From: an uncultured Methanomicrobiaceae archaeon
GTDB lineage: Archaea; Halobacteriota; Methanomicrobia; Methanomicrobiales; Methanoculleaceae
NCBI GenBank assembly: GCA_963826525.1
Contig: CAWGXH010000004.1
Span: forward strand, 352,001 to 416,000
DNA: 64,000 nt
Direction: 5' to 3'
This document shows, in pieces, positions 41,392 to 63,531 of the stretch; within the stretch, counting starts at the first letter, position 1; each line of letters begins with the position of its first letter. The notes beneath the pieces are model-generated. The model saw only the letters and a list, made by a program, of their open reading frames with translations. It did not search any database and was not told where the DNA came from. Position numbers and translations under genes: made by a program.

Positions 41392-41658
41392 ATGGGACGC
41401 TGGTTGACGAGACTCGGCCTGAGCCTGCTTGCGATCGGGCTGGTTGCCGCCCTGCTCTGGCTGCTGTACCTGTACCCGGAGATCGTTCTCGTATACGAGC
41501 TGGGCCTTATCGGCCTTGTATGCGGCCTTGAACTGCTCAACAGCTCGTCACTGAAAGCACGTCCGTTCGTAGGCTACCTCAGGATCACGCTGGTCGCCGG
41601 TCTTGTCATCTTCGGCCTTATCGTGATAAACAAGTTCCTGGTTCTGCTCGGGGGATAG
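41392..41658 (+). CDS. Small hypothetical membrane protein (about 3 TM)
   Basis: 88 aa, three hydrophobic segments; AT-rich promoter-like GATATATCAATAA upstream. Confidence 0.6.
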   Translation: MGRWLTRLGLSLLAIGLVAALLWLLYLYPEIVLVYELGLIGLVCGLELLNSSSLKARPFVGYLRITLVAGLVIFGLIVINKFLVLLGG

Positions 41659-41965
41659 CGCCCCGGCACCCCTCTTTCTCTCCGAAAAATCCTCTCCGCC
41701 CGTCAGAGAAGAAGGCCGGACGGTAACGGCACTGCCGGTAGTCCCGGCCGCTCTCCCGCACCCTCACGAGGGCAGGATTCGATATGCGGGAGAGGCGAAG
41801 AATTAAATAGGTGAATGGGCTTCATCAGAGTATCCTCATCATATGGAGATGCCCTGCACCAGAGACGAGTCGGCAGGAAGAGAGCACCCTGCCGACGAAG
41901 ATTTACTGCCGGCGGAGGAAACCGCACCGGGATTACCGGGAACAGGGCTGAAGGGAGACGATAAC

Positions 41966-43216
41966 GTGGTTTTCGAAGATCTCATCAATAAAACAGTCTG
42001 TGTCGCAGGCCTCGGCTACGTCGGCCTTCCGCTTGCCGACAGCTTTGCAGAACACCTATCGACAATCGGCTTTGATATCGACCAGAGGAAGATTGCCGCC
42101 ATTGAAGCACGGGAGAGGAACCGGATCACCGCCACATCCGACCCTGCCCGGATACGCGAGGCGGACTATGTGCTGCTCTGCGTCCCGACACCAGTCACGC
42201 GGTCGAAGGAGCCGGATATGCGCTTTGTCACGTCCGTTGCAGAAGTCGTCGGGAGAAACCTGAAACCCGGAGCGATCGTTGTCCTCGAATCGACCGTGTA
42301 TCCCGGGGTGACCGAAGAGGTGGTAGCACCGATCCTCGAACGCGAATCGGGACTCCGGTGCGGGACCGACTTTAAGGTGGGCTACTCTCCGGAGCGGATA
42401 AACCCGAGCGACGAGGCCCATACGCTCGATAAGATCACCAAGATCGTCTCGGGGATGGATGCAGAGACGACGGAGATCCTTGCCGGCTTGTATGGACTGG
42501 TCACAACCGTCTACGTGGCACCCGACATCAGGACCGCAGAGGCGGCAAAGGTGATCGAGAACGTGCAGCGCGATCTCAACATTGCCCTGATGAACGAACT
42601 TGCAATCATCTTCCACAGAATGGGCATCGATACGGCATCTGTCCTGAAAGCGGCAGGAACGAAATGGAATTTTCATCAGTACACGCCGGGTCTCGTCGGC
42701 GGCCACTGTATTCCGGTCGACCCCTATTACCTCGTCTATCGGGCGAAAGAGCTCGGGTACCATCCGCAGGTGATCCTCGCCGGACGGGCGATCAACGACT
42801 ATGTCCCCCGGCACATCGCCGAAATGGTTGTCAAGGGACTCAATGAGCAGGGAATGGTCATCAAGGGATCGAACGTCCTGATCATGGGACTGACCTACAA
42901 AGAGAATGTGCCCGATACCCGGGAAAGCCCGGTCAAAGAGATCGTCGCCTATCTGAAAGAGTTCGGTGTCAACGTATACGGCCACGACCCCCTGCTCTCC
43001 CTGAGCGAGATGGAGACCTTCGATCTTGTGCCGCTCGAGGAGATTGACGTCAAGGCCGATGCCGTCGTCGTCGCCGTTGCGCACGACCAGTTCAGGGATC
43101 TCTCGCTCGATCAGGTAGGCAGCATCATGAATTCGAGCAGAGTTCTCATCGATGTACGGGGAGTCTTTGCCGACAGAAACCCCGCCGGGGACGGGTTCTA
43201 TTATAAGCGGCTGTGA
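41966..43216 (+). CDS. Nucleotide-sugar (UDP-HexNAc) 6-dehydrogenase, TviB/WbpO type
   Basis: GLGYVGLPLA, VPTP, ESTVYPGVTEE, SPERINP, AKVIENVQRDLNIALMNEL, PGLVGGHCIPVDPYYL, GLTYKENVPDTRES. Confidence 0.93.
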   Translation: MVFEDLINKTVCVAGLGYVGLPLADSFAEHLSTIGFDIDQRKIAAIEARERNRITATSDPARIREADYVLLCVPTPVTRSKEPDMRFVTSVAEVVGRNLKPGAIVVLESTVYPGVTEEVVAPILERESGLRCGTDFKVGYSPERINPSDEAHTLDKITKIVSGMDAETTEILAGLYGLVTTVYVAPDIRTAEAAKVIENVQRDLNIALMNELAIIFHRMGIDTASVLKAAGTKWNFHQYTPGLVGGHCIPVDPYYLVYRAKELGYHPQVILAGRAINDYVPRHIAEMVVKGLNEQGMVIKGSNVLIMGLTYKENVPDTRESPVKEIVAYLKEFGVNVYGHDPLLSLSEMETFDLVPLEEIDVKADAVVVAVAHDQFRDLSLDQVGSIMNSSRVLIDVRGVFADRNPAGDGFYYKRL

Positions 43217-43246
43217 CTGCTCGAAAAGAGCGATTTTAACACATAC

Positions 43247-43274
43247 GGGAATGCGGGGGTGTATCCCGCATCCC
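43247..43274. terminator. Hairpin between convergent genes
   Basis: GGGAATGCGGG..CCCGCATCCC inverted repeat between the dehydrogenase stop and the beta-helix 1 stop. Confidence 0.35.
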
Positions 43275-43355: not shown

Positions 43356-44730
43356 TCAGGATGACGGCACGGCGGCAAGGTCGCTGGTTATGAGAAGTTT
43401 ATCCAGTTTGGTACCGTCCTCTCTCCACATCACTTTCAGCGCGTGCTTGCCTGCGGAAAGGGTGTACTGACCTACTTTGTTCCACGTCCAGACCTTGCCG
43501 GTGGCGGGCTCCCACTTGAACGCCGCACCACCGTCGATAGAGACCCAGAACGAGTCCGTCGTGCTGTCCGGGGCGAGCGTTCTGCCGTGGATGGCATACT
43601 GACCGGCCGCAGACAGATCGAACGTGTAGGTTGCAGTTCCCGTGGTCGGCGCGGAGGCGCGTGCACCGGTGCCGGTCGGGACGACAATATACTTCCCGCC
43701 CGATGCGGCAACATCGTTGAGCGCCTGCATGGGTGCGACGAGCGTGCCGCTCTCCGCCTCAATCACAATATCTTTCTCGACCGGGATGTCGATGGGAGTT
43801 CCATCGCCCATACCTTCCGGTACAAAGGTCGGATCGCTGCTGACGACGACCTTGTCGATCTTCGTGCCGTCCTCACGTAGCATCACCTTCAGGGTGTGCG
43901 TGCCGGCGGCCAGCGGATAGGATCCCATCTTGTTCCAGGTCCACTCCGAACCTGTGCCCGGTTCCCACTTGAAGGCCGCACCACCGTCGATGGAGACCCA
44001 GAACGAGTCGTCCGTGCTCGACGGGGCGAGTGTCCGTCCGTGAACGGCATAGGTGCCCGAGGCGGGGACGGTGAACGTAACGGTTACCGCTCCATCCACG
44101 GGGGGCGAGGCCCGGTTGCCTGCACCCTGCGGTGCCCAGACGTACTTGCCGCCGGATGCGGATGCATCGGATGCAACGACCATCGGGCTTGCCGGGACTG
44201 CAGACTCCATCTCAACCCAGACCTGGGGGCTGGTCGGAGTCGGGGTCGGTGTGGGGGTAGGGCTCGGCGTCGGGGTCGGCGTCGGCGTCACAACCGGATC
44301 GGCCGCTCCGCCGGTGCCGGTCGGCACGAAACCGGGGTCATTGGTGGCGAGGAGCTTGTCGAGTTTCGCTCCGTCCTCGCGCCACATCACCTTCACGGTG
44401 TGGTCACCGGGGGTGAGCGAGTACGAATCCGACCTTCGTCCACTGCCAGTCGGTGCTCACGACGGGCGCCCAGCTGAATGCGGCTGCACCGTCGATGGAG
44501 ACCCAGAACGAGTCGCTCGCGCTGTCCGGAGCACTACACCGGCCATAGATGGCGTAGGTGCCTGCCTCGGAGACGCTGATCCGGGAGGTCGCGGTTCCCT
44601 CGGTTGCCGGGGGCTGCACGGAATGTCCGGTTCCCTCAGGAACCCCGATGTACTTCCCGCCGGAGGCTGCTGTATCGGCAGCTGCCGTCATCGGTGCGGT
44701 TATGCCGGCCGCTTCAGCCTCGTACCAGAG
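43356..44730 (-). repeat. Three tandem approx. 125-aa CBM-like modules
   Basis: Each has E[AM]E, AASGGKY/SASGGKY, YA[IV][YH]GR..AP, DSFWVSIDG, W.W.K[VM]G.Y.L..G.H..KVM.REDG.K.DK; the DNA word GAGACCCAGAACGAGTC occurs three times (about 43540, 43993, 44498). Confidence 0.9.
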
Positions 44731-46306
44731 GTACACCGGATTATCGACAGGAGTCGGCGTCGGGGTAGGTGTCGGTGAAATCACACCGGAGCCGACAACG
44801 ACACCGCTTGTGTCGACAGCCGTTCCGCCGATGACCTTGACGGCGCTCGTGCTGGTCGTGGCGATCGTACCGGTCACCTTAACGCGCTGGGCGTTCTCAA
44901 AGCAGAGAACGATCGATGACTTACAGTTCTGGGCGTGGATATCGATCGTGCTGTCGGTCAGCGGGCCGTTCCACATACTGTAGGCAAACGGATCGTCGGA
45001 TGCCGTCGTCGCCGCGAACTTGGCTGCCGTGACGGTCGAAGAGCCCGTGTGCAGCGGGTAGCCTGCAGCACCGTTCAGGTAGAAGTCCTCGACCTTCATG
45101 TTCCAGGCCTTCGAGAGGACGATCCCCTGGCGGACGGCGTCGTTCGAGGTGCAGTTCGTCATGGTGATATCATGGCCGTGCCTGACCACGAAGCCGTACC
45201 AGGAGGCGTCGTCCCGGCAGTTCACGAAGGTGTCGTCGGAACACTGGCTGACACTACCGCCGCTGACCAGATACCCGTGCTTGTTGTTGTACGAGTAGCA
45301 GTTCTCGAGGTTGCATCCCTTCGGGACGGTGAACCCGGCGCCGAACATGCACTTGTCTTTGCCCTTCTGGGCGTTGTTGACGCTGACGCAGTCCTTGAAG
45401 TTCACGTTCTTGCTGCTCAGGTATGAGAAGCCCTCGAGGTGGAACCCGCTCTCCTGGTTGCCTTCTGCGTAGCAGCCGACGATCCAGGCATTCTCGATGT
45501 TGTTCTTCTCGAGGATGTCAAACCCGGTCACCCACGGCCCCGTCGAGACGGAGCTGTATCTGCCGCAGTTGATGAGCTTCGCAGTTGATGTACCGGACGT
45601 TCTTGATCAGGTTCGGGCTTCCCTCACCGCTGTTCAGGAACCCGTAGCGGCCGCAGTCGATCGCCTTGCAGTTCACGAACTCGACGTCCTCGACGACTTT
45701 GTTGGCCGCCCAGACGTAGAATCCGCCGATCCGCGAGTTGTCGACCGTCATCGTCACATTACGGACACGGGCGTGGTTGGTCTCGATGAGCATGTCGGCC
45801 TTGCCGGTCACCTTGAAGTCGGCGAACGTCACGTACTGTGAACGGATCCGAAGGCCCCCGTCGCCCGGAAACTTCAGGATTGTGGCGTCAGGCCCCTCGC
45901 CTTTCAGCGTCTTGTACGCGGCGGGCTGCAGGTTGCCGGCACAGTTGTACGTTCCCTTCAGCAGGAGAACCGTTCCGCCGCCGGCAGGGAGGGCATTGAG
46001 GGCGGCCTGAATCTCGACATGGTCGTTAGACCCGTCGCAGACGTATTTGGCCGACGCCTTTGCTGCTGCACTGCTGTCGCTTGCTGCTACGAGGATTGTC
46101 GTCGTGCTTCCGCCGGACTCAGCCCAGTTCGAGCCGGTAGCGGTGCGAAGCTGCGTCACGGTATCCGCGACCTTTGCATCGGAATACCGGAGATCCTGGA
46201 AATCTGTCGATGTCGCTGCTGATGCACTCATCGGCACAATGGCCGATGCAAAACAGAGCACCAGAAATACTGAGATTACTTGTCTTGCTGATGGTCGATC
46301 TCCCAT
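43356..46306 (-). CDS. Secreted right-handed beta-helix protein 1 with Pro/Thr linkers and three CBM-like modules (about 980 aa); apparent +1 frameshifts near 45574 and 44427
   Basis: Three ORFs (45518-46306, 44404-45531, 43356-44396) join into one protein collinear with its paralogues; signal peptide; DHVEIQAALNALP..GGTV.L..GTY pectate-lyase-3-like N-cap; periodic NC/FxxC coils. Confidence 0.85.
44229..44290 (-). repeat. Pro-Thr dipeptide linker (second copy at about 44750-44780)
   Basis: TPTPTPTPSPTPTPTPTPT encoded by imperfect 6-bp repeats. Confidence 0.9.
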
Positions 46307-46799: not shown

Positions 46800-48359
46800 T
46801 CAATCGATCAGCGGTATCAGAATCGGTACCAGAATTGGTTTCAGTTCCGGAATAGCGCCGCCGTTCGAGACCACAACACCGGAGACATCGACGTTCGATC
46901 CCCCGATGACCTTCACCGCATTGGGGCTGCTCGATACGATGTTGCCGGTTACGGTCACTCTTTCTGCGTTCTCAAGGCAGATGACGGTATCCGATTCACA
47001 CCCTTCAGCATTGATATCGATCGTGCTGTCGGTGACCGGCCCGTGCCACATGCCCCCGGCGAAGGGATCGTCGGCAGTCTTGGTTCCGGCGAACTTTGCA
47101 GCCGTGACGGTCGAAGACCCGGCATGCAGTGGGTATCCTCCGGCGTTCCTCATGGTGAAGTTCTCGACCGTGAGGTTCCAGGCCTTCGAGAGGACGATTC
47201 CGTCGCGTTCAGCGTCGTTTGAGACGCAGTCGGTGATCGAGCTGTCGTAGCCGTGACGGAACATAAAGCCGTACCAGGAGGCGTCGTCCCGGCAGTTCTT
47301 CATGGTGATATCATAGCACTTGCTGATGCTGCCACCGCTGACGAGGAAACCGTGCTTGTTGTTGTACGAGTAGCAGTTCTCGAGGTTGCATCCCTTGGGG
47401 GTCGTGAACCCGGCGCCGAACATGGCATTCTCTTTGCCCTTCGCGGCATTGTTGATGCTGACGCAGTCCTTGAAGTTCACGTTCTTGATGTTCAGATACG
47501 AGAAGCCCTCGAGGTGGAACCCGCTCTCCTGGTTGCCTTCCGCGTAGCAGCCGACGATCCAGGCATCCTCGATATCGTTCTTCTCGACGATATCAAACCC
47601 GGTCACCCAGGGGCCGGTATTGACGTAGCTGTCCCGTCCGCAGTTGATAGCTTCGCAGTTGATGAACCGGACGTTCTTGACGAGTTTCGGCGACCCTTCA
47701 CCGCTGTTGATGAACCCATAGCGGCCGCAGTCGATCGCCTTGCAGTTCACGAACTCGACGTCTTCGACGACTTTGTTGGCCGCCCAGACGTAGAAGGCAC
47801 CGATCCGCGAGTTGTCCACCGTCATCGTCACGTTGTGGACGCGTGCATGGCTCTGGGCAACGAGCAGGTCGGCGGTGCCGAGGATCGTGAAGTCTGCAAA
47901 GGTTACATAGGACGAACGGACTCGTGGTCCGCCCACACCCGGAAACTTCAGGATTGTGGCGTCGGCGCCCGAACCTTTCAGCGTGGTGTAGGCACCGGGC
48001 TGCAGGTTGCCGGCACAGTTGAACGTACCCTCCGTCAGGAGGACGGTTCCGCCGGCGGGCAGCGCCTTGAGAGCGGCCTGAATCTCCAGGTGATCATTGA
48101 CCCCGTCACAGGTGTAATCTGCCTGAGCCTTTGACGCTTCACCGGCATCGTATGCCGCCACAACGAGCGTCACCGTGCCTGCTTCCGCGGTAGCCCATTC
48201 CGAGCTCTCCGTGCGCAGGCTGTTTGTGTATTCCGACACTTGTTCTTCGGTCAGGCGCAGATCTTCGATAGGCGTGGCAGCGGTTCCGGCTGCTGTACCG
48301 GCCGGCATCATCGCCGACACCAGGCACAGCACCAGAACCGTGCTTATCACGTGTTTCAT
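46800..48359 (-). CDS. Secreted right-handed beta-helix protein 2
   Basis: Signal peptide MKHVISTVLVLCLVSAMMPAGTAA (the GGAGGTGA SD fits an in-frame CTG at 48377 better); conserved core MTVDNSRIGAFYVWAAN..GNQESGFHLEGFSYL. Confidence 0.88.
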   Translation of the reverse strand: MKHVISTVLVLCLVSAMMPAGTAAGTAATPIEDLRLTEEQVSEYTNSLRTESSEWATAEAGTVTLVVAAYDAGEASKAQADYTCDGVNDHLEIQAALKALPAGGTVLLTEGTFNCAGNLQPGAYTTLKGSGADATILKFPGVGGPRVRSSYVTFADFTILGTADLLVAQSHARVHNVTMTVDNSRIGAFYVWAANKVVEDVEFVNCKAIDCGRYGFINSGEGSPKLVKNVRFINCEAINCGRDSYVNTGPWVTGFDIVEKNDIEDAWIVGCYAEGNQESGFHLEGFSYLNIKNVNFKDCVSINNAAKGKENAMFGAGFTTPKGCNLENCYSYNNKHGFLVSGGSISKCYDITMKNCRDDASWYGFMFRHGYDSSITDCVSNDAERDGIVLSKAWNLTVENFTMRNAGGYPLHAGSSTVTAAKFAGTKTADDPFAGGMWHGPVTDSTIDINAEGCESDTVICLENAERVTVTGNIVSSSPNAVKVIGGSNVDVSGVVVSNGGAIPELKPILVPILIPLID

Positions 48360-48735
48360 GGTTTGTCTGTATCTCAGGATTTCACCTCCGAGGTGACACC
48401 AGCTCATATAATAATAATTTTATAAAAACCTATTGAAAATAAACAGGAGTATGAGCACAAAGATCCAAAGCATTGAGGAGATATAGCGGAACTAAAGGCC
48501 TGTGAGAGGTTTTTTAGCAGAGATTACACCGGAGATAGTTATAAATATGCGATACTGCAGCAGTGCTGGCGGGCCCGGGAGGTTTGTGATGAACACTTCC
48601 CCGAACGAGATCACCGGGGACGAAAAACGCAGACGGAAGTGTAGACAGAAAAAAGATCGATGGCGGGGATGGCCGCCACCGGGCGGTGCTATCGGTGCGG
48701 TTTACCCACGAGGGGATCCCGCAACACTATTCCGC

Positions 48736-50229
48736 TTATGCGGTTGGGATAAAGACCGGGGCGCTTAATGTCTCTGCCACAGGTGCGTCGACCGTTGCAG
48801 AAGATACTTCTGCATTCACGCTTCCCGCAGCGGTGAATCCTGCAGTATCGACTGCCGTTCCACCGGCGACCCCTACCGGGTCTGCACTGGTGGTGACAGC
48901 GTCACCGGTGAGGGTAACCCGCTCGGCGTTCTCAAGGTAGACGATTGTGTCACATGTAACACCCTCGGCATGGATGTCAAGCGTGCTGTCGGTGACCGGA
49001 CCGTCCCACATACTGTAGGCGAACTGGTCGTCCGATGCCTTCGTTCCGGCGATCTTCACCGCAGCCATCTCGGAAGACCCTGCATGGACTTTATAGCCTG
49101 CAGTGCCGACCAGCCTGAAGTCCTCGGCTCTGATGTTCCAGGCCTTTGAGAGGACGAGACCCTGTCGTGCCGCATCCTTTGACTCGCAGTTCGTCAGGGT
49201 GCAGTCGTAGCCGTGGCGGATCGTGAACCCGTAGTCCGATCCTTCATCGGTGCAGTTCACAAAGGTGTTGCCGAACCCCTTGCTGACGCTGCCGCCGCTG
49301 ACGAGGTAGCCGTGCTTGTTGTTGACTGAGGTACAGTTCTCAAGCGTGGTACCCTTCGGGACGGTGAACCCGGCGCCGAACATGCAGGCATCCTTGCCCT
49401 TCGCGGCATTGTTGACGCTGACGCAGTCCTGGAACCGGACGTTCTCGATGTTCAGGTACGAGAAGCCCTCGAGGTGGAACCCGCTCTCCTGGTTGCCTTC
49501 CGCGTAGCAGCCGATGAGCTCGGCGCCGTCGATATCGTTCTTCTCGACGATATCAAACCCGGTCACCCAGGGGCCGGTCTTGACGTAGCTGTCCCGTCCG
49601 CAGTTGATCGCCTCGCAGTTGATATACTTGATATCCTTCACGAGCCGGGGCGACCCTTCGCCGCTGTTGATGAACCCGTAGCGGCCGCAGTCGATCGCCT
49701 TGCAGTTCTCAAAGACGGTGTCTTCGACGACATCGTTGGCCGCCCAGACGTAGAAGGCACCGATGCGGGAGTTGTCCACCGTCATCGTCACGTTACGGAC
49801 GCGGGCGTGATCGTCCTCGATCATCATGTCGGCCTTGCCAACGACCTTGAAGTCGGCGAACGTCACCGACGGTGCACGGATCCGAAGGCCGCCGTCGCCC
49901 GGATAGTTCAGGACGGTGGCATCTTCCCCGGCACCCTGCAGGGTCTTTCCTTCCCCGGGCTGGATGTTGCCGGCGCAGTTGAACGTACCCTCCGTCAGGA
50001 GGACGATTCCACCAGCAGGCAGGGCATCGAGAGCCTGCTGAATCTCCACGTGATCGCTTGTACCGTCGCAGATGTAGCTGGCCTGAGTTTTTGCTTCTTC
50101 GCTGCTGTCATATGCAGCCACGACAAGCGTGGTTGATCCCGCTGCCGCCCCTGCCGGTGCAAAAACCGGAATGAGGCAGAAGACCAGGAGCACTGCAACC
50201 AGTCGTTTCATACTTCGCGTGTCTCTCAT
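48736..50229 (-). CDS. Secreted right-handed beta-helix protein 3
   Basis: Signal peptide MKRLVAVLLVFCLIPVFAPAGAAA; same core motifs. Confidence 0.88.
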   Translation of the reverse strand: MRDTRSMKRLVAVLLVFCLIPVFAPAGAAAGSTTLVVAAYDSSEEAKTQASYICDGTSDHVEIQQALDALPAGGIVLLTEGTFNCAGNIQPGEGKTLQGAGEDATVLNYPGDGGLRIRAPSVTFADFKVVGKADMMIEDDHARVRNVTMTVDNSRIGAFYVWAANDVVEDTVFENCKAIDCGRYGFINSGEGSPRLVKDIKYINCEAINCGRDSYVKTGPWVTGFDIVEKNDIDGAELIGCYAEGNQESGFHLEGFSYLNIENVRFQDCVSVNNAAKGKDACMFGAGFTVPKGTTLENCTSVNNKHGYLVSGGSVSKGFGNTFVNCTDEGSDYGFTIRHGYDCTLTNCESKDAARQGLVLSKAWNIRAEDFRLVGTAGYKVHAGSSEMAAVKIAGTKASDDQFAYSMWDGPVTDSTLDIHAEGVTCDTIVYLENAERVTLTGDAVTTSADPVGVAGGTAVDTAGFTAAGSVNAEVSSATVDAPVAETLSAPVFIPTA

Positions 50230-50624
50230 GCTGCTCACTCCTCACATGGAGGTAGATCTGCATCTCTGAATCGCAATATAAATAATTATCCTATAATATC
50301 ACCTTTATAAAAATTGAGATCTGAGGAATAGGGCATATGATAATGGGAGTTTTTTATTTCAGGTTGAGAATAATAATTAAATCCGTGATGAGATGTAATA
50401 TATACTAGAACTTCGATCAATATCGGAGCGTTTAAATAATCGCGCTGATTGGCCGGCGCCATCCCCGGTGAGTTTCGAGAATAGCGGGGAAAAACAGGTT
50501 TTTGCGGGCAGGGAAGACTGCGCAAGCCGCCTCTGCGAGAAAGCTTTCAGTTCAGGGGCAACTTCCTCTTTCCCGGCCTACCTGCTTACAGACGTGGGTT
50601 TCGGAGAGAAAGGGGGGTTGTGAA

Positions 50625-54519: not shown

Positions 54520-56359
54520 TCAGGCAGCATTCAGGTTTTTCGGCACCGGGTAGAGATACCAGGTGTCGAACTCCCCGTTTGCATACGTCTTATCGAGGCC
54601 GGGATCACTGGAGAGACGGACGAAATCCGGAGCTGAATACTGATGCACCTGCGCCCGGACACTCTCCGGAAACGCCATATATGGGTACCTGGTTCATCTC
54701 CGTCGTCATCAGGTAGAGCGGGGGGTTGGTATCGAGCGATACCGCCAGCGTCCGGTTCGTATCGTACCCGAAATGCGAAGGGATGAAACTATCGAGCTGC
54801 GGCCGGTTGAAGTATTCCGGTGTCCCGTAACCGAAGTAGTACATCTCGTACCTGCCGAGCGGGAGGTCGGTGGTGAGCAGGGGAGTTTTGGTGTCGGCAG
54901 CGGTGAGATACCAGACGACCCCGTCGAGTTCCGACGTCGTGAGTTGAGCGTTTGCTTTCACGATATTCGGGCTGAAGTAGACGTTGAAAACGCCAAAAAA
55001 ACTTGCCCCGATGAGGAGGAAGACCATCGCCCCGAGGAATATCTTCCGCACCGTCGGCCGGTCGATCACCCGGTACTTATGGTAGAAGGTATAGCCGCAG
55101 AGGACAGGGATCACGACCACGGCGTACCGGGCGACCCTGATAGGTTCGAACTCGATGAAGTAGCCGACGACCATCGCAACAGCAAACGCCGTTGCCGCCA
55201 GGACCTGGACGCCATAGTACACTTCAAATCTTCGCGCCTTCCCCTTCAGGAAGAAAACGAGCACCAGCACCAGTGCAATGTACGCAGCGAGGAAGGAGAA
55301 GAGAAGCTGCCCGTACTGGGCAAGCGCTATTCTTCCCATCTCGATGAGCGAGATGTTCGCCTGCTCGGCAAGCCCGCCGTAGTATGAAGCGATCCCCGTG
55401 CTCTCCCCGAAGAGCCCGCCCAGTATTGCTTTCAGTTTCCAGTCGAGCCCTTCAAACGGATTCAGCCAGGTGAAAAGCCCGAGGACGATGGCCAGTATGA
55501 AATAGCGGACGTCGGGCTCGGGTGTGAGAGAGCCTCTCCCGAAGAACCTCTGCGCGACGATACCGGTGAGCCCGAAGACCGTAAAGATGATCAGGGCGAT
55601 GAGGGCGGTCATGGGATGAAAGAAGACGAGGAGGAGCGTCAGCAGCAGTGCAAGGGCCGTGAACGCAACCGGCGAGGTCGAGAGATTCTTGCGGTGGTAG
55701 CACCCGAGCAGGAGCGGGATCATGAAGACCGAGAGGATCGAGGGATGGATGGACTCATGGAAGTATGAGAGGAGCAGCGGAATCGAGAAGGCCAGAATGA
55801 AGAAGAGCGGCCCTTTGCACGGCGAGACTGTCTTTGCCAGAAAGAGCATGAAGACGATGAAGGCGAGCGAGAAGAAGATAGCCAGAAACATCGCCGCTTG
55901 ATCGAGCGATATGCCGATGTAGTCGAGAACCGAGACGAGGATATGGACCACGGGGTAAAAGTCGTTCGTGGCGATATGGCCGTATTCCACGATCGTCCTG
56001 CTCCAGCCGATATGCGAGAGAACGTCGTTGTTGCCCCGGCCGTAGAGGACGTATCCCCGTATCGCGGGCAGGCCGAGAAAGATCACGTAGGTCAACAGCA
56101 GCGGGATGAGGCCGAAGAGCCAGTACCAGGTCACCTCCGTTGCCCGGGTGCCGGACCAGACGATGAGCAGGAGGCCGAGCAGGATGCTCACGACGATCGC
56201 CGCCCAGAAGTAGACGGGGTAGGCATCGTAGATGGAGAGCTCATACCCGGTCGCAGGGCCTGATCTGATGATGGTCAGCAGAAGAACGAAGATACAGGCC
56301 ATCTGGCCGAGGGCAAGTATTTTTGCAAGGCGGTAATCGGGCGGGACGACGAAGGCCAT
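54520..56359 (-). CDS. Polytopic membrane protein (DUF2206-like; polymerase/GT-C candidate); apparent +1 frameshift near 54684
   Basis: About 13 TM segments; PATGYELSIY, GRGNNDVLSHIG, FYPVVHIL, FFHPMT; C-terminus continues as DFVRLSSDPGLDKTYANGEFDTW to TGA at 54520. Confidence 0.75.
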
Positions 56360-57492
56360 TAAGAGCCTCCCTCCTGCCGCCCCAGCGCCGCCCGGTACTT
56401 CCGCACAGCCTCTTCGAAGGTGAACATCGCCTGGACAAGGCTCTGTCCCCGATCTGCCACCTCCGCAAGATCGCTCCGCTGGAGGCATTCGAGGACGGCA
56501 CCGGCGATCGCGTCAGGGTTATTCTCCGCCATAAGATATCCGGTCTCGCCGTCTCTGATGATATCCGGAATAGAACCTACCGGTGTCGCGAGAACCGGTG
56601 TTCCGCAGGCCATCGCCTCGAGAACGATATTCGGGAGGCCTTCCGAATAAGACGGCACGACAAGCAGTTTCAGCTCGCTGAGCACCTCCGGCAGTCGGTC
56701 GCGGGGCGCCCACCCGGGAAGGCATACGTGATCGTGGAGATGGTAGAGGTCTAAGAGTTCCTCAACCCTTCCGCGCTGGGGGCCGTCTCCCACGATCATG
56801 AAGGAGAGATCACCCTGTTCCTCGAGCACCCGGGGTATCGCCTCGACGAGATTGAGGATCCCCTTCACCTCACTGAGGCGCCCGACGTACCCGACAAGGT
56901 TTTGCCGCTCACCGACCGGCTTTCTGCTCGAAAATAGGGCAAAATCGAGATAATGCTCGTGGGCAATCGCAATTTTGGGGATGAAGGGTTCAAGACCCCG
57001 CTCCCTGACGATCCGGTCTGAATAGATGATGATGGTGTCTGCCAGGTGGAAGTTGATCGATGAGAGGAGCGAGAGCGATCCTGCAAGGTTCTCGCTGTCC
57101 GCGGCAGGATCACGTGTCGGGAACCCGGCAAGACCGATGGCGGTACGTGCCCCGGTGATCTTTGCCGCGAGCATGGGGAGAATGAGACCCTCTCCCCCGA
57201 TGAAGAAGACCCAGGTATCCACGTCTCTTCCGGCTTTCAGCACGGCGTAGGACATCCGGAGCTGGGCGTGAATATACCGTGCGATCTTCGGTCCGATCTT
57301 CTCGGTGTACTGGTGATCTACGCCGGATACCTTCACCCGCGGGTCGTCCCGGAAGGCCAGATATCCTTCGTTCCCCGTGATGAGGTGGAGGTCGCCGCCG
57401 AGCATGGCCATGATAGCCACGAGGTGAGAGAGCGGCGTGGTGCCGCTTGTGGAGAGAGGGAACGTGATAATACCGAGGCTGGAACGCTTCAT
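56359..57492 (-). CDS. Glycosyltransferase family 4
   Basis: YVGRLSEVKG, IVGDGP, PSYSEGLPNIVLEAMACG.PV. Confidence 0.93.
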   Translation of the reverse strand: MKRSSLGIITFPLSTSGTTPLSHLVAIMAMLGGDLHLITGNEGYLAFRDDPRVKVSGVDHQYTEKIGPKIARYIHAQLRMSYAVLKAGRDVDTWVFFIGGEGLILPMLAAKITGARTAIGLAGFPTRDPAADSENLAGSLSLLSSINFHLADTIIIYSDRIVRERGLEPFIPKIAIAHEHYLDFALFSSRKPVGERQNLVGYVGRLSEVKGILNLVEAIPRVLEEQGDLSFMIVGDGPQRGRVEELLDLYHLHDHVCLPGWAPRDRLPEVLSELKLLVVPSYSEGLPNIVLEAMACGTPVLATPVGSIPDIIRDGETGYLMAENNPDAIAGAVLECLQRSDLAEVADRGQSLVQAMFTFEEAVRKYRAALGRQEGGS

Positions 57493-58673
57493 GAGCCCCG
57501 CTCCTCAAGGACTGTTTTGTACAGATTCTCCATCCGTTCCACGACACTCCCCCAGCCGAACTCGGAGAAGACCATCGTGCGTCCGTCTTCTCCAAACCTT
57601 CGCCGGCCTGCATCGTCCTTGAGCATATCGATGATTGCGGAAGCGAGCTCGTCCCGGTCGTACCGGACGACCCTGCCGCCCCGCCCGTCGATCATCTCCG
57701 CGATGCCGCAGCGATCGGTGAGAATAGCCGCCGTGCCGCAGGCGTTCGCCTCGAGAACCGTATTCGGGAAGGTCTCGTAGAGCGACGGGAGGACATAGAC
57801 ATCAGCATCGATATATGCGCTGAGCTTATCGCGGGTCTCATAGAGGGGGCCGGTGAAGAGGATCCGATCGGCTATACCGAGTGCCGCTATCTGCTGTTTC
57901 AAGGAAGGAAGCAGCCCCCCGTCGGGCCCGACGATGACGAGCCGTGCACGATGCCCCTCCCGGAGGATATCCGCGAACGCATCGACCAGGAGGTCGGTGC
58001 CCTTGATACGGTTGATCCGCCCGAGGAAGAGAATGATCTGCTCGTCGTCCGGGATACCGAACGCCTCCCGGAACCTCCCGGGTTCCGGAAGATCCCGGAA
58101 GAGAGAGAGGTCGACCCCGTTCGGAACGGTGACGATCCTCTCTCTTTCGACGCCCATTGCCTCGTACTGCTCTACCTCCCGTGGGTTGAGGGCAATGACG
58201 CGGGACGCACCCCGGAGCATCCGTTCCCCCCAGATACTGTCGAAGAACCCTTTCAGCCGCTGTACCTGCATAATCTTCGGGAGCGAACCACGCGCCTGCA
58301 GCACGTAGGGGACGTCGTATTTGCGTGCATAGCGGCAGACACCGGCGGTCAGGAGTGCCCGGTACTCGTTCATATGGATGATATCAAATGAGTCAATCTC
58401 CCGCCGGGCCACAACCGGCGAGTAGTAGGGCGTCGGCGGGAGCAGGGACGGCGCATACCTTCGAAGGTTTTCAAAGTAGTATACCCGGACGCCCTCGACA
58501 TCGACCGGAGCGTTGGTCGTAAGGTCGTAGTCCTGGTATGCCCAGTTGGTGGTGTAGACGGTGACCGCATGGCCCCGCGCCGCAAGGTGCCGGGAGAGCT
58601 CATATGTCGAGCGGGCGACACCGCCCGCCTCCCAGATCGGCTTATAGAAGTTCGCTACCTGGAGAATGTTCAT
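57489..58673 (-). CDS. Glycosyltransferase family 4
   Basis: Start MNILQV at 58673; PNGVD, FLGRINRIKG, PSLYETFPNTVLEANACG. Confidence 0.93.
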   Translation of the reverse strand: MNILQVANFYKPIWEAGGVARSTYELSRHLAARGHAVTVYTTNWAYQDYDLTTNAPVDVEGVRVYYFENLRRYAPSLLPPTPYYSPVVARREIDSFDIIHMNEYRALLTAGVCRYARKYDVPYVLQARGSLPKIMQVQRLKGFFDSIWGERMLRGASRVIALNPREVEQYEAMGVERERIVTVPNGVDLSLFRDLPEPGRFREAFGIPDDEQIILFLGRINRIKGTDLLVDAFADILREGHRARLVIVGPDGGLLPSLKQQIAALGIADRILFTGPLYETRDKLSAYIDADVYVLPSLYETFPNTVLEANACGTAAILTDRCGIAEMIDGRGGRVVRYDRDELASAIIDMLKDDAGRRRFGEDGRTMVFSEFGWGSVVERMENLYKTVLEERGS

Positions 58674-60637
58674 TGACGCTGTACCCCCACACCCACAAAT
58701 CCTTTCCCACTCACTCCGCCCGACTGCCCGGCGGCGAGTTCCGGGATCGACCCCTGAGCCGGTACCCCGGCACCTGCCGAAGCCTCCCCGGGGATCGCGG
58801 CTTCGTGCTCCCGGAGAGCGAGGGCGAGAACCAGCATCCGGAAGAGATATTTGGAGTTCAGGTAGGGATACTTCACAAAACCGGAACGAATGAGCAGGCA
58901 TTCGAGGCGCGCCGATAGGCCAGGGCTCTTATCTGCGATATCGCGGAAGATGCGCAGCAGGTTGTAGGATCGGTTCTGCGCCCGTATCCTGCCGTCCCCC
59001 TCTGTGAGAATCGACTCAACCCAGACTTCGGTCTTCTCCGGGTCGAGCACCTTCCGGAGAGCCGCCGGCGGGTTCCGTATGAGAGCGTCACGGATCAGGG
59101 CCTGAATATGCGGGTCGCGGTAGATCCGATCGAAACGGGTGCCTTCCGTCATATAGGGGTTCGGCGCGTTCGTATCCCGGAAGAGCTCCGGAAACCGATC
59201 GCGGTTCATCGCCACGAAGAGAGATTTATCCGTCCTGAGGCGGCTCGGTGTTGCGGCTATCACGTCGATGGTATGCCCGAAGAGGAACGGAGCGAACTGC
59301 GGTATGTAGACACGCCGGAAATAGGCCATCGTCTGCAGAAGGCGGGGACTTCGATGCCGCCAGAAGATGTAATCACGCAGATCGTCCATCTTCCGGATAG
59401 ACGAAGGGCACTCCCGGACGTACCGGTTTCGCTGTCTGCGTAAGTAATCCACTCCCTGTGCAAAGGCATCGGGGAGAAGAATCCGTTCCGGTTGGGCGAA
59501 CTCTCTGAGCGTGTAGAGGTAAGTGTTGAGGAAGACCAGATCGAGGTTTCCCGCAGGCAGTCGCCCCCCCCAGACCTCGTCCCCGCGTAGAATATAGTCA
59601 TACCGGCGGGATGCGTCCTGATAGAACCGGATGCCGAGGAACGCATCCTGGCTGACGACCGTATCGCATTCTCCGCCGGTCGCGGCGATCACGCGATGGA
59701 TATCATCGATGAGGCGAGAGGTTTCGGTCAGGTCGGCATCATAGAAGAAGTGATCTGCACCGAGCTTTTTTGCATAATACTCCCCGACCGAAGCGTCGCT
59801 CGCGGTATAGGCATCCCCGAAATTATAACTGACGGCACCGAAAGGAACCTTCAGTGCATCGAGAAAACCAAGGAGCGATCGCGAGTCGGTTCCGCCGCTC
59901 AGCGTTAAAAGCCCTCGTCCAGGAGGGAGCGCTGCAATATCCTGCGCTATCGCTTCGGCAAGCCTCTCTTTCAGGCTCTCTTCACCCTCGTCCGACGGGC
60001 TGAAGGTCATCTGCCAGTAGAACCGGCAGGCAAGACCGGCACTGTTGGCATAGACGGTACTGCCCCGGCCCCAGGCGGAAGACTTCGTTCCAGAATGTTC
60101 CGTCGCCCCAGAGATGGCCGCTGGCCATAAACTCATGGACCGCACCTTCCCGGATGCCCGGCTGCCACCCATACTTCGCAAGGGCACGGAGCGAGAGCGT
60201 TTCGGGAGAGACGGCGACGTAGCACTCCCTCCATCGGTATAGTACACCGGGTGAGTGCTGAGGTTGTCTGCGGCCACAACGATCTCGTGGTCTTTGCGGG
60301 AGTAGACCACCGCCTGGAAGTGACCGTACCAGTCCCGGAAGAACGATTGTACATCGCCTTCTGCGAGGTTTTCTGCGCAGTTTCGGAGAATATCCTGGGT
60401 GACCGGATTTCCTTTATACAGCGGCCACCCGTACCATGCAACCAGCCAGTCCTCGGAGTCGATGCATCCGTAGGAGTCCTTCCCGGTATGGAGTATGATC
60501 ACCGAGAGATCGTCCCACCGTGTGATGACGTGGCGTAAAAGCCCCGATGACTCGTACATCGTATCTGCAATACCCTCGGCAATCTCCCGCGATAATCCGG
60601 TGGGTTCTCTCTCGAGAACTGCGATGATTCCTGGCGT
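58670..60637 (-). CDS. Asparagine-synthetase-related amidoligase (degenerate Ntn domain plus ATP-pyrophosphatase domain); compensating indels near 60222 and 60056
   Basis: PP-loop LTLSGGTDSR, RGDEVWGG, FAPFL; the 60222-60056 segment reads YVAVSPE..EFMASGHLWGDGTFWNEVFRLGPG in another frame; start uncertain (ACG at 60637 or GTG at 60676). Confidence 0.75.
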   Translation of the reverse strand, partial: TPGIIAVLEREPTGLSREIAEGIADTMYESSGLLRHVITRWDDLSVIILHTGKDSYGCIDSEDWLVAWYGWPLYKGNPVTQDILRNCAENLAEGDVQSFFRDWYGHFQAVVYSRKDHEIVVAADNLSTHPVYYTDGGSATSPSLPKRSRSVPLRSMGGSRASGKVRSMSLWPAAISGATEHSGTKSSAWGRGSTVYANSAGLACRFYWQMTFSPSDEGEESLKERLAEAIAQDIAALPPGRGLLTLSGGTDSRSLLGFLDALKVPFGAVSYNFGDAYTASDASVGEYYAKKLGADHFFYDADLTETSRLIDDIHRVIAATGGECDTVVSQDAFLGIRFYQDASRRYDYILRGDEVWGGRLPAGNLDLVFLNTYLYTLREFAQPERILLPDAFAQGVDYLRRQRNRYVRECPSSIRKMDDLRDYIFWRHRSPRLLQTMAYFRRVYIPQFAPFLFGHTIDVIAATPSRLRTDKSLFVAMNRDRFPELFRDTNAPNPYMTEGTRFDRIYRDPHIQALIRDALIRNPPAALRKVLDPEKTEVWVESILTEGDGRIRAQNRSYNLLRIFRDIADKSPGLSARLECLLIRSGFVKYPYLNSKYLFRMLVLALALREHEAAIPGEASAGAGVPAQGSIPELAAGQSGGVSGKGFVGVGVQRQ

Positions 60638-61017
60638 GATTGGTCCCCCTTGAGAATGTATGTGGTTCTGACGCACCGGCCGAGCCGTGACGGATGCACG
60701 ATCGCGTCATGGAAGCCCGGAATAATCCCCCCGGTTCCGTATACTACCGGAGCCTCCCTGCCCTGTGAAGGCGGGCGACGCGCGCTAACGGGTGTAATAG
60801 CAAAACACCTATATATAGGTTACCCACGGCCGGGAGAGCGCCTCGGACAATCCGTTTTTCCCGGAAAAACGGTGGCAGAAGGTAAAAACCAGTGAGCAGC
60901 AGGGCAGCGGTTCCAAGAGAGGGATATAAATATATACCCATATCGACCTAAAGAATAAAAATAAAGAAATAAAATTTATCCCGCTGTTTTCATCAGATAA
61001 AAGAGAATAATGGCAGA

Positions 61018-62094
61018 TTATTCAGCTCCGTTTCCGCCCCGGAGCCTTCTCCGGAGCAGACCACCGTAACACTGCAGACAGAACGGCGTTGTGAGCCACA
61101 CACCGCACTCGAGGAGCGGCAGGACTCCATGCTGCCGTATACGAAGCCGATAACTTTCAAGATTCATCTTCATATAGTTCTCAGCGATCTGCTCGAACCA
61201 CCAGCGGTTCGTAATCCTGCCCTCGGTCACCGCCCGTGAGACATCCGCTATGTGATCGCGAATCCTTCCGGCATCGGCCGGTTCTGCGGGCGAAGGAACA
61301 AAATCGTCATCGACGGTGATGGGAATCGTGGAAAAGTCGTCCACGCCGTCCTTCCCGAGGTCAACGGAGAGGATGCATGAATCGTGCGAGATCCCGTGCG
61401 GCCAGTTCGGATCGAACTGGAACAGGCCGAGCGAATATGCGATCAGTCCGCCGTGGTAGCGTTCCACAGCCTGAATGGTATGGGGGTGGTGCCCAAGGAT
61501 AAGGGTTGCACCGGCATCGACAAGGCTTCTTGCCAGCCGTATCTGCTCTGGAGAGGGATAATAAACGAGCTCCGTACCCCAATGGAGCGATACCGCGACG
61601 TGATCGCACGACTGCTTCAGTGCCCTGATCTCGGAGACCATCCGCTCCTCGATCAGCCTGCTCACGAATACCCCGGCGGGCATGGCACCTCGTCCGAGGG
61701 TGTAGCCGAGAAACCCGATCTGCATGCCGTTCCGCTCGAAGACGGCATGCGAGGACGGGTACCGGGACGTCGACCCGCCGACGAACCCGATGCCGCTCCC
61801 GGCAAGGGTCTTCAGGGTATTGGAAAAACCAAGGGCGCCCATATCGAGAGTATGGTTGTTCGCCACGCTGACGACATCGAAACCGGCATCCGTGAGGTAC
61901 GATGCCCGGGCAGGTGGGACAGCGATGACGTGATGCTTCGGCGCCGGTTCCCCCTCTGTCGAGAGAGCGGTCTCGAGGTTCCCGAAGAGAATATCCTTAT
62001 TTGCGAGGAGATTCCGGACATGCTCGAAAGGGTGGGAACCGTTTACCGTCTGCAACCAGATATCGCCGACCGCCACCAGTCTGACTGTGTCCAT
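61018..62094 (-). CDS. CapA/PgsA family (PGA_cap) metallophosphoesterase-fold protein
   Basis: AVGDI, FGNLET, VANNHTLDMG, SLHWGTE, GHHPH, AYSLG.F.F. Confidence 0.92.
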   Translation of the reverse strand: MDTVRLVAVGDIWLQTVNGSHPFEHVRNLLANKDILFGNLETALSTEGEPAPKHHVIAVPPARASYLTDAGFDVVSVANNHTLDMGALGFSNTLKTLAGSGIGFVGGSTSRYPSSHAVFERNGMQIGFLGYTLGRGAMPAGVFVSRLIEERMVSEIRALKQSCDHVAVSLHWGTELVYYPSPEQIRLARSLVDAGATLILGHHPHTIQAVERYHGGLIAYSLGLFQFDPNWPHGISHDSCILSVDLGKDGVDDFSTIPITVDDDFVPSPAEPADAGRIRDHIADVSRAVTEGRITNRWWFEQIAENYMKMNLESYRLRIRQHGVLPLLECGVWLTTPFCLQCYGGLLRRRLRGGNGAE

Positions 62095-62103
62095 CCCGAT
62101 TCC

Positions 62104-63531
62104 TCACAGGTCAGAATTCTCGAGCGGAAGCTCCTGGATCAGGAAACGGTACTTACCCCGTTCCGTACGAGGTATTGAGTCGACGAAGCGGATGGTTATC
62201 TTCACATCCTCACCGAGCTTCTTCTGGGATTCCTGCCGGATGGACTCGGTATCACGGTCGGTATAACCGGGTTTACGCACAATCCTGAGTATAACCTCAC
62301 CCTCTCGTTCCTGGTAAAACTGGAATTGAATAACATTATCAAAGACCGCAGAGTGCATGTTCACAGCGGTCATGGGGATCAGCCGGTCGTTGCTGGTGAC
62401 GATGAACTCCTGCAGCCTTCCCTCCACCTTCTTCAGCAGCGGATACGCCCGTCCGCAGCGGCAGTGATCGGTATCCCTGACGGCGAGGTCCATCGTCCGG
62501 TACCGAATGAGCGGGCAGACGAAGTTGGTCAGATTCGTCGCGACCACCTCGCCGAGTTCTCCGGAACCAGTCACCGGGAGGTTGTCTTTGCCGATCAGTT
62601 CGACGATCCCGTACTCGGGGAAGATGTGGTAGCTCGAGCTCTCCTCGCACTCCCCGGCAAGGACGGTCTGTTCGCTGTTGCCGTACCAACTGTAGACCCG
62701 GCACCCAAAGACGTCCTCGATCAGCTCGCGCTGCCAGGGGTAGAGGTTCTCCGACCCGCAGAGGACGGCCTTCAGCGTCAGAAACGGTTCCACCTCGTGC
62801 TTCTGCATATACGTCGCGAGAATGCTGATGATGGAAGGATAGGCCTGGATATACTTCGGCCGGAACGATCGGATCCGGTCGATATACGCAGGCAGTGTCT
62901 CCTCGGTCATGTGGTATGACGACATGATAAGCCAACGGCCGAAGAGAGCCTTCTTCCAGAATATGCGGCTCTCGGCCGAATCGACGATCTGCCCGCGGAG
63001 GACGACGCACCGGTCGCTGAACCGGTAGCCGACCCGGTCCCACTGCGCCTTCATGAACGCCCACTCCTTCGCTCGCGAGACCCCTTTTTCGTAGTAGAAC
63101 CCCACCGGAATACCGGTCGAACCGCCGGTCGTTACGTACTCAAAGGCGCTCTCCGGATAGTTGGTCGCCCGGAGTTCCGGGAGGTTGTTCTGGATGATCT
63201 CCTTCGTGAGAAAGGGGAGCAGGCGGAGATCGGCGAGGTCCCGGATATCCTCCGGTTTGAGACCACGCTCGTCGAAGATACGCCGGTAGTAGGGGACATG
63301 CTCGTACGCGTGGTCGAGCAGCCGTGACAGTTCGGCACGCTGGTAGGCCTCGAGCTCCTCACGGCTCCACCACTGCGAATGCCGCAGAAAGGCATACGTT
63401 CTTCGGAAGGTGTCGTAGGTCGGGAGCAGGCCGAGAGCCTTAGCCGTAACCGACTCCCGATTGTACACGCGGTCCCAGATCTGAGATATTCCAATTCCCC
63501 CGTTCCACGGCATGACTTCCGCCAGCCACAA
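62104..63531 (-). CDS. CapK-like adenylate-forming enzyme (phenylacetate-CoA ligase family)
   Basis: AYEHVPYYR, LPFLTKE, TTGGSTG.P, YGNSE, PLIRYRTMD, VEGR, IPRTERGK. Confidence 0.9.
   Translation of the reverse strand: MWLAEVMPWNGGIGISQIWDRVYNRESVTAKALGLLPTYDTFRRTYAFLRHSQWWSREELEAYQRAELSRLLDHAYEHVPYYRRIFDERGLKPEDIRDLADLRLLPFLTKEIIQNNLPELRATNYPESAFEYVTTGGSTGIPVGFYYEKGVSRAKEWAFMKAQWDRVGYRFSDRCVVLRGQIVDSAESRIFWKKALFGRWLIMSSYHMTEETLPAYIDRIRSFRPKYIQAYPSIISILATYMQKHEVEPFLTLKAVLCGSENLYPWQRELIEDVFGCRVYSWYGNSEQTVLAGECEESSSYHIFPEYGIVELIGKDNLPVTGSGELGEVVATNLTNFVCPLIRYRTMDLAVRDTDHCRCGRAYPLLKKVEGRLQEFIVTSNDRLIPMTAVNMHSAVFDNVIQFQFYQEREGEVILRIVRKPGYTDRDTESIRQESQKKLGEDVKITIRFVDSIPRTERGKYRFLIQELPLENSDL

Follow-up and report, generated by a model that had tools for sequence, protein, structure and literature searches.

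Gene content of the locus

The 64,000-nt stretch of archaeal DNA analysed here (the window) covers positions 352001-416000 of contig CAWGXH010000004.1 (C4) in an assembly of 3.06 Mb and 16 contigs. It carries a cluster in which genes predicted to assemble a cell-surface glycan stand around four tandem genes for secreted β-helix proteins. Based on Pfam and NCBIfam scans of the window proteins, the cluster encodes a UDP-sugar dehydrogenase, the β-helix paralogues BH1-BH4, a Wzx-type flippase, a polytopic membrane protein of the GT-C fold, two GT4 glycosyltransferases, and AsnB-like, CapA-like and PaaK-type ('CapK') proteins. A preliminary description of this DNA had placed the cluster at 41392..63531 and interpreted it as a capsule or exopolysaccharide (EPS) system for a uronate polymer. 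The genes within these limits were confirmed, but the limits themselves need correction, as the first ~450 nt after 41392 contain no open reading frame (ORF) and the glycan genes run on for ~16 kb beyond the window end, giving a whole locus of ~39 kb.

The four secreted β-helix paralogues

BH1 (43356..46306), BH2 (46800..48407; Beta_helix, 48.6 bits), BH3 (48736..50238) and BH4 (50625..52259) are encoded in tandem on the minus strand, share 48-69% identity in pairwise alignments and each begin with a signal-like hydrophobic segment. The earlier view of four secreted β-helix paralogues is thus retained, with the reservation that BH1 is broken in this assembly by two single-base frameshifts, which are visible in the DNA at ~45577 and ~44427. 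An intact BH1 orthologue of 981 aa is encoded in Methanoculleus frigidifontis (locus L001:9380-12325), and this protein is colinear with the segments 46306-45575, 45579-44428 and 44426-43359 in frames -1, -2 and -3. The colinear three-frame match rules out the presence of three separate genes. In its intact form, BH1 is composed of a β-helix, a PT linker and three ~110-aa repeats, which in the Pfam scan of the three ORF pieces resemble CBM6/35 or Golvesin_C modules. These repeats gave weak Pfam matches to Golvesin_C, GH115_C and CBM_35, and they also weakly matched the C-terminal part of PDB 8zvk, which is PT-linked and resembles a binding module (E 5.6e-4).

The C-terminal tail of BH4 shows a PGF motif, a hydrophobic helix and an RRRK end, and its PGF-CTERM scores fall just below the cut-offs (16.7 versus 18.8 for the Pfam model and 23.4 versus 24.5 for TIGR04126). 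NCBI lists the BH4 orthologue as a PGF-CTERM protein, and archaeosortase A is encoded in the genome (287 bits). With the motif, the helix, the basic tail and ArtA in the same genome, BH4 has the sequence features of an archaeosortase A substrate. The four proteins contain 2-3 N-glycosylation sequons each (0.4-0.6 per 100 aa), a weak indication that they are not heavily N-glycosylated. Comparison of the upstream regions of the BH1-BH4 genes revealed no alignable promoter element in common. In the databases, relatives of these proteins have only 'hypothetical' or generic names, including the M. taiwanensis hypothetical protein that is 91% identical to BH3.

For analysis of the family, relatives were collected using a word-indexed search (75 sequences) and an exhaustive profile search, which yielded 376 representative clusters at E ≤ 1e-30. 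An AlphaFold (AF2) model of BH3 was built from a 48-sequence alignment (pLDDT 87.4, pTM 0.84). In Foldseek, this model matched polysaccharide-active β-helices only (GH87, PL6, Sf6 tailspike and AlgE4/6). In VIA-align, the best match was the A-module of AlgE4 (Z 35.7; 18% identity and an rmsd of 1.7 Å across 309 residues), ahead of phi29 gp12 (Z 32.3), tailspike depolymerases, an alginate epimerase/lyase, NosD and RbmB (Z 30.4). The remaining VIA-align matches were all polysaccharide-active β-helix proteins, NosD or adhesins, the latter represented by PfbA and pertactin-type proteins (Z 24-28). Likewise, a search of the family profile against PDB sequences placed AlgE4, AlgE6 and two further mannuronan epimerases on top (E 6.5e-9 to 2.8e-7).

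The alignment of the 48 family members showed that the polar residues E232, E247, E251, N277 and N307 are kept in all of them, H255, E257 and K280 in 46, and H144, D155 and D331 in 45. The conserved acidic, His and Lys residues are located on successive coils and retained down to ~33% identity, and the set of conserved polar residues looks like an extended substrate groove. The catalytic motif of AlgE and AlgG is YG(F/I)DPH(D/E) or DPHD. The DPH string was found in none of the 48 aligned sequences, and the coil matching the DPH segment of AlgE reads E-S-G-F-H-(L/F)-E.

The loose analogy with AlgE drawn in the preliminary description can therefore be kept for the fold, with AlgE4 as the best solved relative by both structure and profile, but not for the active-site motif. 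The family shares with the AlgE4/AlgE6 A-modules of Azotobacter vinelandii and with AlgG the right-handed β-helix, and has conserved polar residues on the coil that carries the YG(F)DPHE segment in AlgE4. In both cases, several secreted paralogues are encoded together with genes for the synthesis of polysaccharides. In contrast to AlgE, which has Tyr/Asp/His at this site, the family described here has Glu/Ser/His/Glu, lacks Ca-binding R-modules (no RTX/HemolysinCabind in Pfam scans of the four paralogues) and has a substrate other than alginate. Judged by sequence, its membership in the AlgE epimerase family fails on the defining motif.

Several relatives are multidomain proteins. Among 30 long homologues, CBM6/CBM35 modules were present in six (up to seven copies), PKD in four, Laminin_G_3 in three, and GDSL/SGNH esterase, dockerin and CARDB domains in two each. 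Some Methanoculleus paralogues carry CARDB and dockerin, and a homologue from another genus has three CBM6 modules and one CBM35. A Pel9A-like Pfam family, which is listed for some homologues, had no match in the genome of the window. The fusions of relatives with CBM6/35, dockerin and SGNH esterase domains make a carbohydrate-active role of the β-helix family likely.

The β-helix proteins could also represent non-catalytic adhesins or envelope scaffolds located in a 'surface island' beside glycosylation genes. This would be compatible with the adhesins found among the structural matches, with the PGF-CTERM anchor of one paralogue, a feature of S-layer proteins, and with the PKD, CARDB and cadherin-like modules fused in some relatives. 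It would leave unaccounted for the fusions to CBM6/35 and SGNH esterase and the invariance of the acidic, His and Lys residues along successive coils, and the best structural and sequence relatives of the family are enzymes. We regard a purely non-catalytic role as improbable.

An archaeal precedent for an enzymatic role is the disaggregatase of Methanosarcina mazei, an extracellular enzyme which degrades the uronate-containing matrix polymer methanochondroitin (PMC12369344). Like disaggregatase and the Disaggr_assoc family, BH1-BH4 belong to the secreted methanogen β-helix proteins, and Disaggr_assoc proteins from other genomes of the same phylum are β-helix proteins, which share with BH1-BH4 the N-terminal cap motif CDG..DQVEIQ.AL (hhalign 96.7%, E 3.3e-10). 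In this comparison, which was made with the Disaggr_assoc proteins of the phylum rather than with the characterised enzyme, only ~98 N-terminal columns align. Neither Disaggr_assoc (PF08480) nor Disaggr_repeat (PF06848) was detected in the BH proteins or in the genome, which is 87.6% complete. Since only the N-terminal cap is shared and Disaggr domains were not found in the genome, the proteins described here form a separate, uncharacterised archaeal β-helix family with an archaeal functional precedent.

Linkage to glycan genes in other genomes

Species-representative genomes were scanned for the β-helix family, which identified 51 loci, including 23 of at least 15 kb. Linkage was counted using tblastn, within 10 kb of a β-helix gene. 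In the 23 long loci, homologues of the window's Wzx were found in 19, DUF2206 in 19, GT4 in 21, the CapA-like protein in 13 and the UDP-sugar dehydrogenase in three, whereas AsnB-like and PaaK-like genes were found in none. The corresponding counts for all 51 loci were 27, 27, 37, 16, 3, 0 and 0, and 39 of the 51 contain 2-4 copies of the β-helix gene. Four loci annotated with Pfam have a fixed order of β-helix, β-helix-CARDB(-dockerin), Wzx, DUF2206, GT4, β-helix, GT4 and PGA_cap. By these counts, the conserved core, present in 19 of the 23 long Methanoculleus loci, comprises the β-helix, Wzx, GT-C and GT4 genes (with CapA), and the uronate, AsnB and CapK genes are lineage-specific extras. 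The association of β-helix homologues with glycan loci, on which the preliminary description depended, is borne out by this distribution. Its polyuronate-specific system is not: the gene neighbourhoods indicate a real linkage of the β-helix genes to glycan assembly, with the link to uronate synthesis in particular not being general.

Five loci were recovered from three other genera, and in four of them glycan genes are located directly beside the β-helix genes. The neighbours in these four include Wzx-type flippases, GT2 and GT4 glycosyltransferases, rhamnose synthesis genes, a polysaccharide deacetylase or a PaaK-like gene. In the fifth (L064), the neighbours of the β-helix gene are instead a DDE transposase and two genes for group II intron reverse transcriptases/maturases. 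Two further β-helix copies in the genome of the window, each split across frames, are found in a second glycan locus (C4:111000-126000) with a DegT aminotransferase, a 4,6-dehydratase and several GT4 fragments. Most genes of this second locus are in pieces, and its continuity is broken by a gene for a group II intron reverse transcriptase/maturase and by part of a DDE transposase.

The β-helix family is present in 61 of 201 sampled genomes of the order, usually with 2-7 matches per genome. It was detected in 37 of the 43 genomes of the window's own family, in both other sampled genomes of its genus, and in 33 of the 37 genomes of one related genus of the same family, which is probably Methanoculleus proper.

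This distribution bears on the proposal that the β-helix proteins are directed at polysaccharides of foreign origin, such as bacterial EPS or plant polymers in digesters and sediments, which they would degrade to make room or obtain access in consortia, and that their glycan-gene neighbourhood is incidental. The dockerin and CBM6/35 fusions recall cellulosome-type degradative enzymes, and digesters and sediments are among the habitats of the named relatives. Against such a role, the β-helix genes are repeatedly found with Wzx, GT-C and GT4 genes, in 19-21 of the 23 long loci and also in other genera, and sugar use is not known from methanogens of this group. We consider degradation of foreign polymers very improbable. 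Both this proposal and that of non-catalytic β-helix proteins are made less likely by the conserved groove residues and the repeated linkage.

The flippase, the GT-C-fold protein and the GT4 glycosyltransferases

The flippase and the two GT4 glycosyltransferases noted earlier were all confirmed. The flippase (52900..54144, plus strand) is of the Wzx/MOP type (Polysacc_synt, 47.4 bits against a cut-off of 28.2), and its homologues in 27 of the 51 related loci are 46-51% identical. Both GT4 genes are on the minus strand. GT4 (a) is encoded at 56359..57492 (Glycos_transf_1, 138.5 bits) and GT4 (b) at 57489..58901 (Glycos_transf_1, 120.9 bits, and Glyco_transf_4), with the likely true start of the latter being the Met codon at ~58673. 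Homologues of GT4 (b) in related loci are 42-47% identical.

The polytopic protein (54605..56362, minus strand; the ORF start may lie as far as 56488) has no Pfam family, and only 24 homologues were detected. It had been listed before as a protein of approximately 13 transmembrane segments. Its polytopic nature stands, and its AF2 model (pLDDT 81.1) adopts a GT-C fold near AglB, PMT and ArnT rather than that of a recognisable Wzy. The top 35 Foldseek matches were GT-C enzymes, including yeast and human STT3, PglB, AglB, AftA and ArnT. All of the first 14 VIA-align rows were also GT-C enzymes (Z 19.1 down to 10.2), headed by AglB (Z 19.1, rmsd 3.8 Å over 372 residues), Pmt4 (17.2), Pmt1/2 (16.6), STT3 (16.5) and ArnT (16.4).

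In other Methanoculleus loci, the position of this gene is occupied by DUF2206. In pairwise BLASTP, the GT-C protein gave no match with DUF2206 or with a neighbouring 638-aa protein of locus L010, and hhalign aligned it with DUF2206 over 445 columns (89.9% probability, E 1.7e-6). Residues E41 and D113, candidates for the acidic residue that GT-C enzymes conserve in an early extracytoplasmic loop, are invariant in 22 sequences, and in the profile alignment D113 pairs with the invariant D228 of DUF2206. Based on the same locus position, the profile similarity and the aligned invariant Asp, the GT-C protein and DUF2206 are read as one divergent GT-C-like family, whose members would act on lipid-linked sugars at the outer face of the membrane.

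Two other loci (L010:11757-13673 and L063:12212-14236), which represent a second type of β-helix locus, encode a 638-674-aa protein without a Pfam family, located after GT4 genes at the DUF2206/GT-C position. This protein may be a further divergent member of the same membrane group.

The polytopic protein is not AglB itself: Pfam detects no STT3 domain in it, a WWD motif is missing, and the STT3 match of the genome is located elsewhere (C4:511935-512624). Its C-terminal domain is also small compared with that of AglB/STT3. No other large polytopic protein was seen in the window part of the locus or in the next 16 kb, and Pfam scans of this DNA gave no match to Wzy or O-antigen ligase, although Wzy proteins are very divergent.

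These results raise the possibility that the locus serves protein glycosylation, with the GT-C protein moving a flipped lipid-linked glycan to S-layer or other surface proteins as an accessory to AglB, and with the β-helix proteins acting as trimmers or lectin-like partners. The nearest relatives of the GT-C model (AglB, PMT, STT3 and DPY19) are all protein glycosyltransferases, and neither a Wzy nor a chain-length regulator was recognisable in the locus scans. The cassette is also near-universal in one related genus, and in the N-glycosylation system of Haloferax (AglR/AglS) a flippase-like protein is paired with a polytopic outer-face transferase. On the other hand, the GT-C protein lacks the STT3 match and WWD motif, with a canonical STT3 homologue encoded ~96 kb away. 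Furthermore, long polysaccharides are the usual substrates of β-helix enzymes that carry CBM6/35 modules, and the sequon-poor β-helix proteins are not obvious dedicated N-glycan acceptors. On balance, a locus devoted to protein glycosylation seems rather unlikely to us.

Genes for precursor synthesis and modification

The dehydrogenase (41843..43216, plus strand) contains three UDPG_MGDP_dh domains and scores 385 bits with TIGR03026 (cut-off 190). The best specific model is TviB, with 362 bits, which is below the equivalog cut-off of 592. The earlier assignment as a UDP-HexNAc dehydrogenase is therefore upheld, and the protein can be described as a TviB/WbpO-like UDP-HexNAc 6-dehydrogenase.

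The AsnB-like PP-loop protein (58670..60676, minus strand) barely exceeds the cut-off of the Asn_synthase family (22.7 versus 21 bits) and has weak NCBIfam matches, no N-terminal Cys nucleophile and no relative in PDB. A PP-loop, SGGTDS, is visible, and residues ~150-200 appear to be out of frame. Resemblance to asparagine synthetase, as proposed earlier, is therefore present but weak.

CapA- and CapK-like genes had also been listed, and both are present, but their names do not imply a capsule. The CapA-like protein (61018..62094, minus strand) is a PGA_cap metallophosphatase-family protein (201 bits) without an N-terminal hydrophobic segment or anchor. Its homologues in 16 of the 51 loci are 52-55% identical, its nearest solved relative is PDB 8gq9 (E 6e-12) and its NCBIfam relatives are of the PGA_cap/MslH type (epimerase). 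The 'CapK' protein (62104..63531, minus strand) is a PaaK/F390-synthetase-type adenylate-forming ligase, with NCBIfam scores below the cut-offs and PaaK as a PDB match (E 4.2e-30). The two proteins resemble CapA/PgsA and 'CapK' in the PGA_cap domain and the PaaK-like ligase, and differ from a poly-glutamate capsule system in the missing membrane anchor and in the absence of CapB/CapC from the scanned locus. Since CapB and CapC were not found there, poly-glutamate synthesis is not indicated.

A second PaaK-type gene (C4:418668-420051), which is read in two frames and is 66-84% identical to the window copy, adjoins two FemAB-like (Acetyltransf_6) genes. The two PaaK-type ligases and the AsnB-like and FemAB-like proteins belong to amide- or ester-forming types. 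Together with two uronate-forming dehydrogenases, they suggest the synthesis of uronic acids with amide-linked substituents, which are known from the N-glycans of Methanococcus.

Genome setting and locus borders

The window has a GC content of ~59%, and the genome is estimated to have 87.6% completeness and 5.3% contamination. Given the 91% identity of a β-helix protein to its M. taiwanensis counterpart and the fact that all named relatives belong to Methanoculleus or Methanomicrobiales, the host is a non-halophilic methanogen of the Methanoculleus lineage.

Upstream of the dehydrogenase, a conserved hypothetical protein with a Pro-rich N-terminus and one hydrophobic segment (40598..41263, plus strand) has no Pfam or NCBIfam match. 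It has an 80% identical copy beside the dehydrogenase in the M. frigidifontis locus L001, and its status as a locus member is uncertain. Beyond the window end, the locus continues with FemAB-like acyltransferases, a Gfo/Idh/MocA oxidoreductase, a GT4, a second UDP-sugar dehydrogenase, a UDP-GlcNAc 2-epimerase and a GT2, and its far border is a pseudouridine synthase gene. The UDP-GlcNAc 2-epimerase and one GT4 in this part are truncated. A search of the flanks for tRNA genes found none, and the base composition of the locus gave no genomic-island signal.

Split genes are not confined to the locus. In the window, the POR alpha subunit is spread over two overlapping ORFs (38453-39566, minus strand), deoxyhypusine synthase is truncated (176 of 288 profile positions; 12051-12794, minus strand) and TiaS is broken (13756-14691, minus strand). 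The assembly probably carries many indel errors. As split genes are frequent, affecting housekeeping genes, the second PaaK copy and the second glycan locus, sequencing error seems a likelier cause than true disruption. In a search of sequencing runs, five DNA runs shared small portions of the sequence (at most 0.10 of the sampled words), and no RNA run was among the matches listed.

Two other features of the window were observed outside the locus. Three tandem paralogous HAMP-domain histidine kinases of ~630-670 aa each are encoded at 17609-23647 (plus strand). A serine recombinase (Resolvase and HTH_7; 6846-7499, plus strand) adjoins riboflavin genes, and the stretch 4001-8000 around it has a GC fraction of 0.556-0.558 versus ~0.59-0.63 nearby, so this stretch may be a small mobile remnant.

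Proposed function of the locus

We tentatively propose that the locus directs the assembly of a cell-surface polysaccharide and encodes its own extracellular processing enzymes, a reading which we consider quite possible, if somewhat short of probable. In the cytoplasm, the TviB-like dehydrogenase, the second dehydrogenase and the UDP-GlcNAc 2-epimerase would supply HexNAc-uronic acids, from which the GT4 enzymes would assemble a dolichol-linked repeat unit. The AsnB-like, PaaK-like and FemAB-like enzymes would probably attach amide-linked groups. The flippase, whose family assignment is clear, would carry the unit outward, and the enzyme with the GT-C fold, in the place that Wzy has in bacteria, would transfer or polymerise it at the outer face. 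Outside the cell, the four β-helix proteins would bind the product and cut, trim or epimerise it, with BH4 tethered via PGF-CTERM and BH1 targeted by its three binding modules. By analogy with Methanosarcina disaggregatase, Vibrio RbmB and Pseudomonas PslG, we favour a glycanase activity for the β-helix proteins, which might serve chain length control, release or remodelling.

Several observations weigh against this proposal. The missing DPH motif leaves the catalytic chemistry of the β-helix proteins without an AlgE-type site, and the uronate genes, present in three of the 23 long loci, lie outside the conserved core. No initiating phosphoglycosyltransferase was found among the Pfam matches of the ~39-kb locus (it may be encoded outside), and a Wzy or O-antigen ligase was likewise not recognised in it. 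With AglB as the best match of the GT-C model, followed by protein mannosyltransferases, the predicted structure is no less compatible with protein glycosylation than with polymerisation. That the β-helix family occurs in 33 of 37 genomes of one genus would be expected of a core envelope function, such as glycosylation of the S-layer, more than of an accessory EPS. With so many frameshifted genes, it is uncertain in what form BH1 and several of the enzymes exist in the living cell. Finally, the polymer itself is hypothetical, as we know of no EPS or capsule from Methanoculleus.

Gene loci with a comparable layout are known from bacteria. In Wzx/Wzy-type EPS and capsule loci, such as that of Vibrio with RbmB, a flippase, GT4 enzymes and nucleotide-sugar enzymes are also encoded beside a secreted polysaccharide-processing protein, and WcaM/AmsF and PslG are further examples of processing proteins encoded in EPS loci. 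Unlike these systems, the archaeal locus lacks a recognisable Wzy, Wzz or Wza and has a GT-C/DUF2206-type protein in the place of the polymerase, an archaeal lipid carrier, PGF-CTERM anchoring, and four processing paralogues instead of one. The GT-C protein shares with AglB/STT3/PglB, PMT, ArnT and AftA the fold seen in the top 14 structure rows and, with DUF2206, the aligned D113/D228 pair. In combining glycan synthesis with dedicated enzymes for processing outside the cell, the system would by analogy be of the same kind as those of alginate, Vibrio VPS/RbmB and methanochondroitin/disaggregatase. As a variant, it is marked by its archaeal setting, a GT-C partner instead of Wzy and a β-helix family with a different conserved site. 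In agreement with the preliminary description, which knew of no such system, a literature search at the level of titles and abstracts found no account of this cassette, of a Methanoculleus exopolysaccharide or capsule, of a Methanoculleus β-helix protein or of DUF2206.

A bolder version of the proposal is that the Methanomicrobiales (Methanoculleus and relatives), thought to have only an S-layer, make an unseen outer heteropolysaccharide using Wzx and a DUF2206-type GT-C enzyme instead of Wzy, and remodel it outside the cell with AlgE-like β-helix paralogues that have a new Glu/His active site. Taken as a whole, this version is unlikely, and we offer it as a speculation.

Implications for methanogen surface glycans

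To our knowledge, little is known about the surface polysaccharides of methanogens beyond pseudomurein and methanochondroitin. For methanochondroitin, no synthesis genes are established, and none are given in the consulted passages of PMC12369344. The cassette of β-helix, Wzx, GT-C/DUF2206, GT4 and CapA-like genes was found in most of the Methanoculleus genomes sampled. Members of this genus are dominant in many biogas reactors. If the locus only decorates an S-layer protein, it would represent an ordinary, though uncharacterised, glycosylation island. If the β-helix proteins are glycanases or epimerases acting on a self-made polymer, they would constitute the second archaeal family of this type, after the Methanosarcina disaggregatase, and DUF2206 would gain a function. 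Such processing of a self-made polymer would also provide handles on aggregation, phage receptors and syntrophic contacts in digesters.

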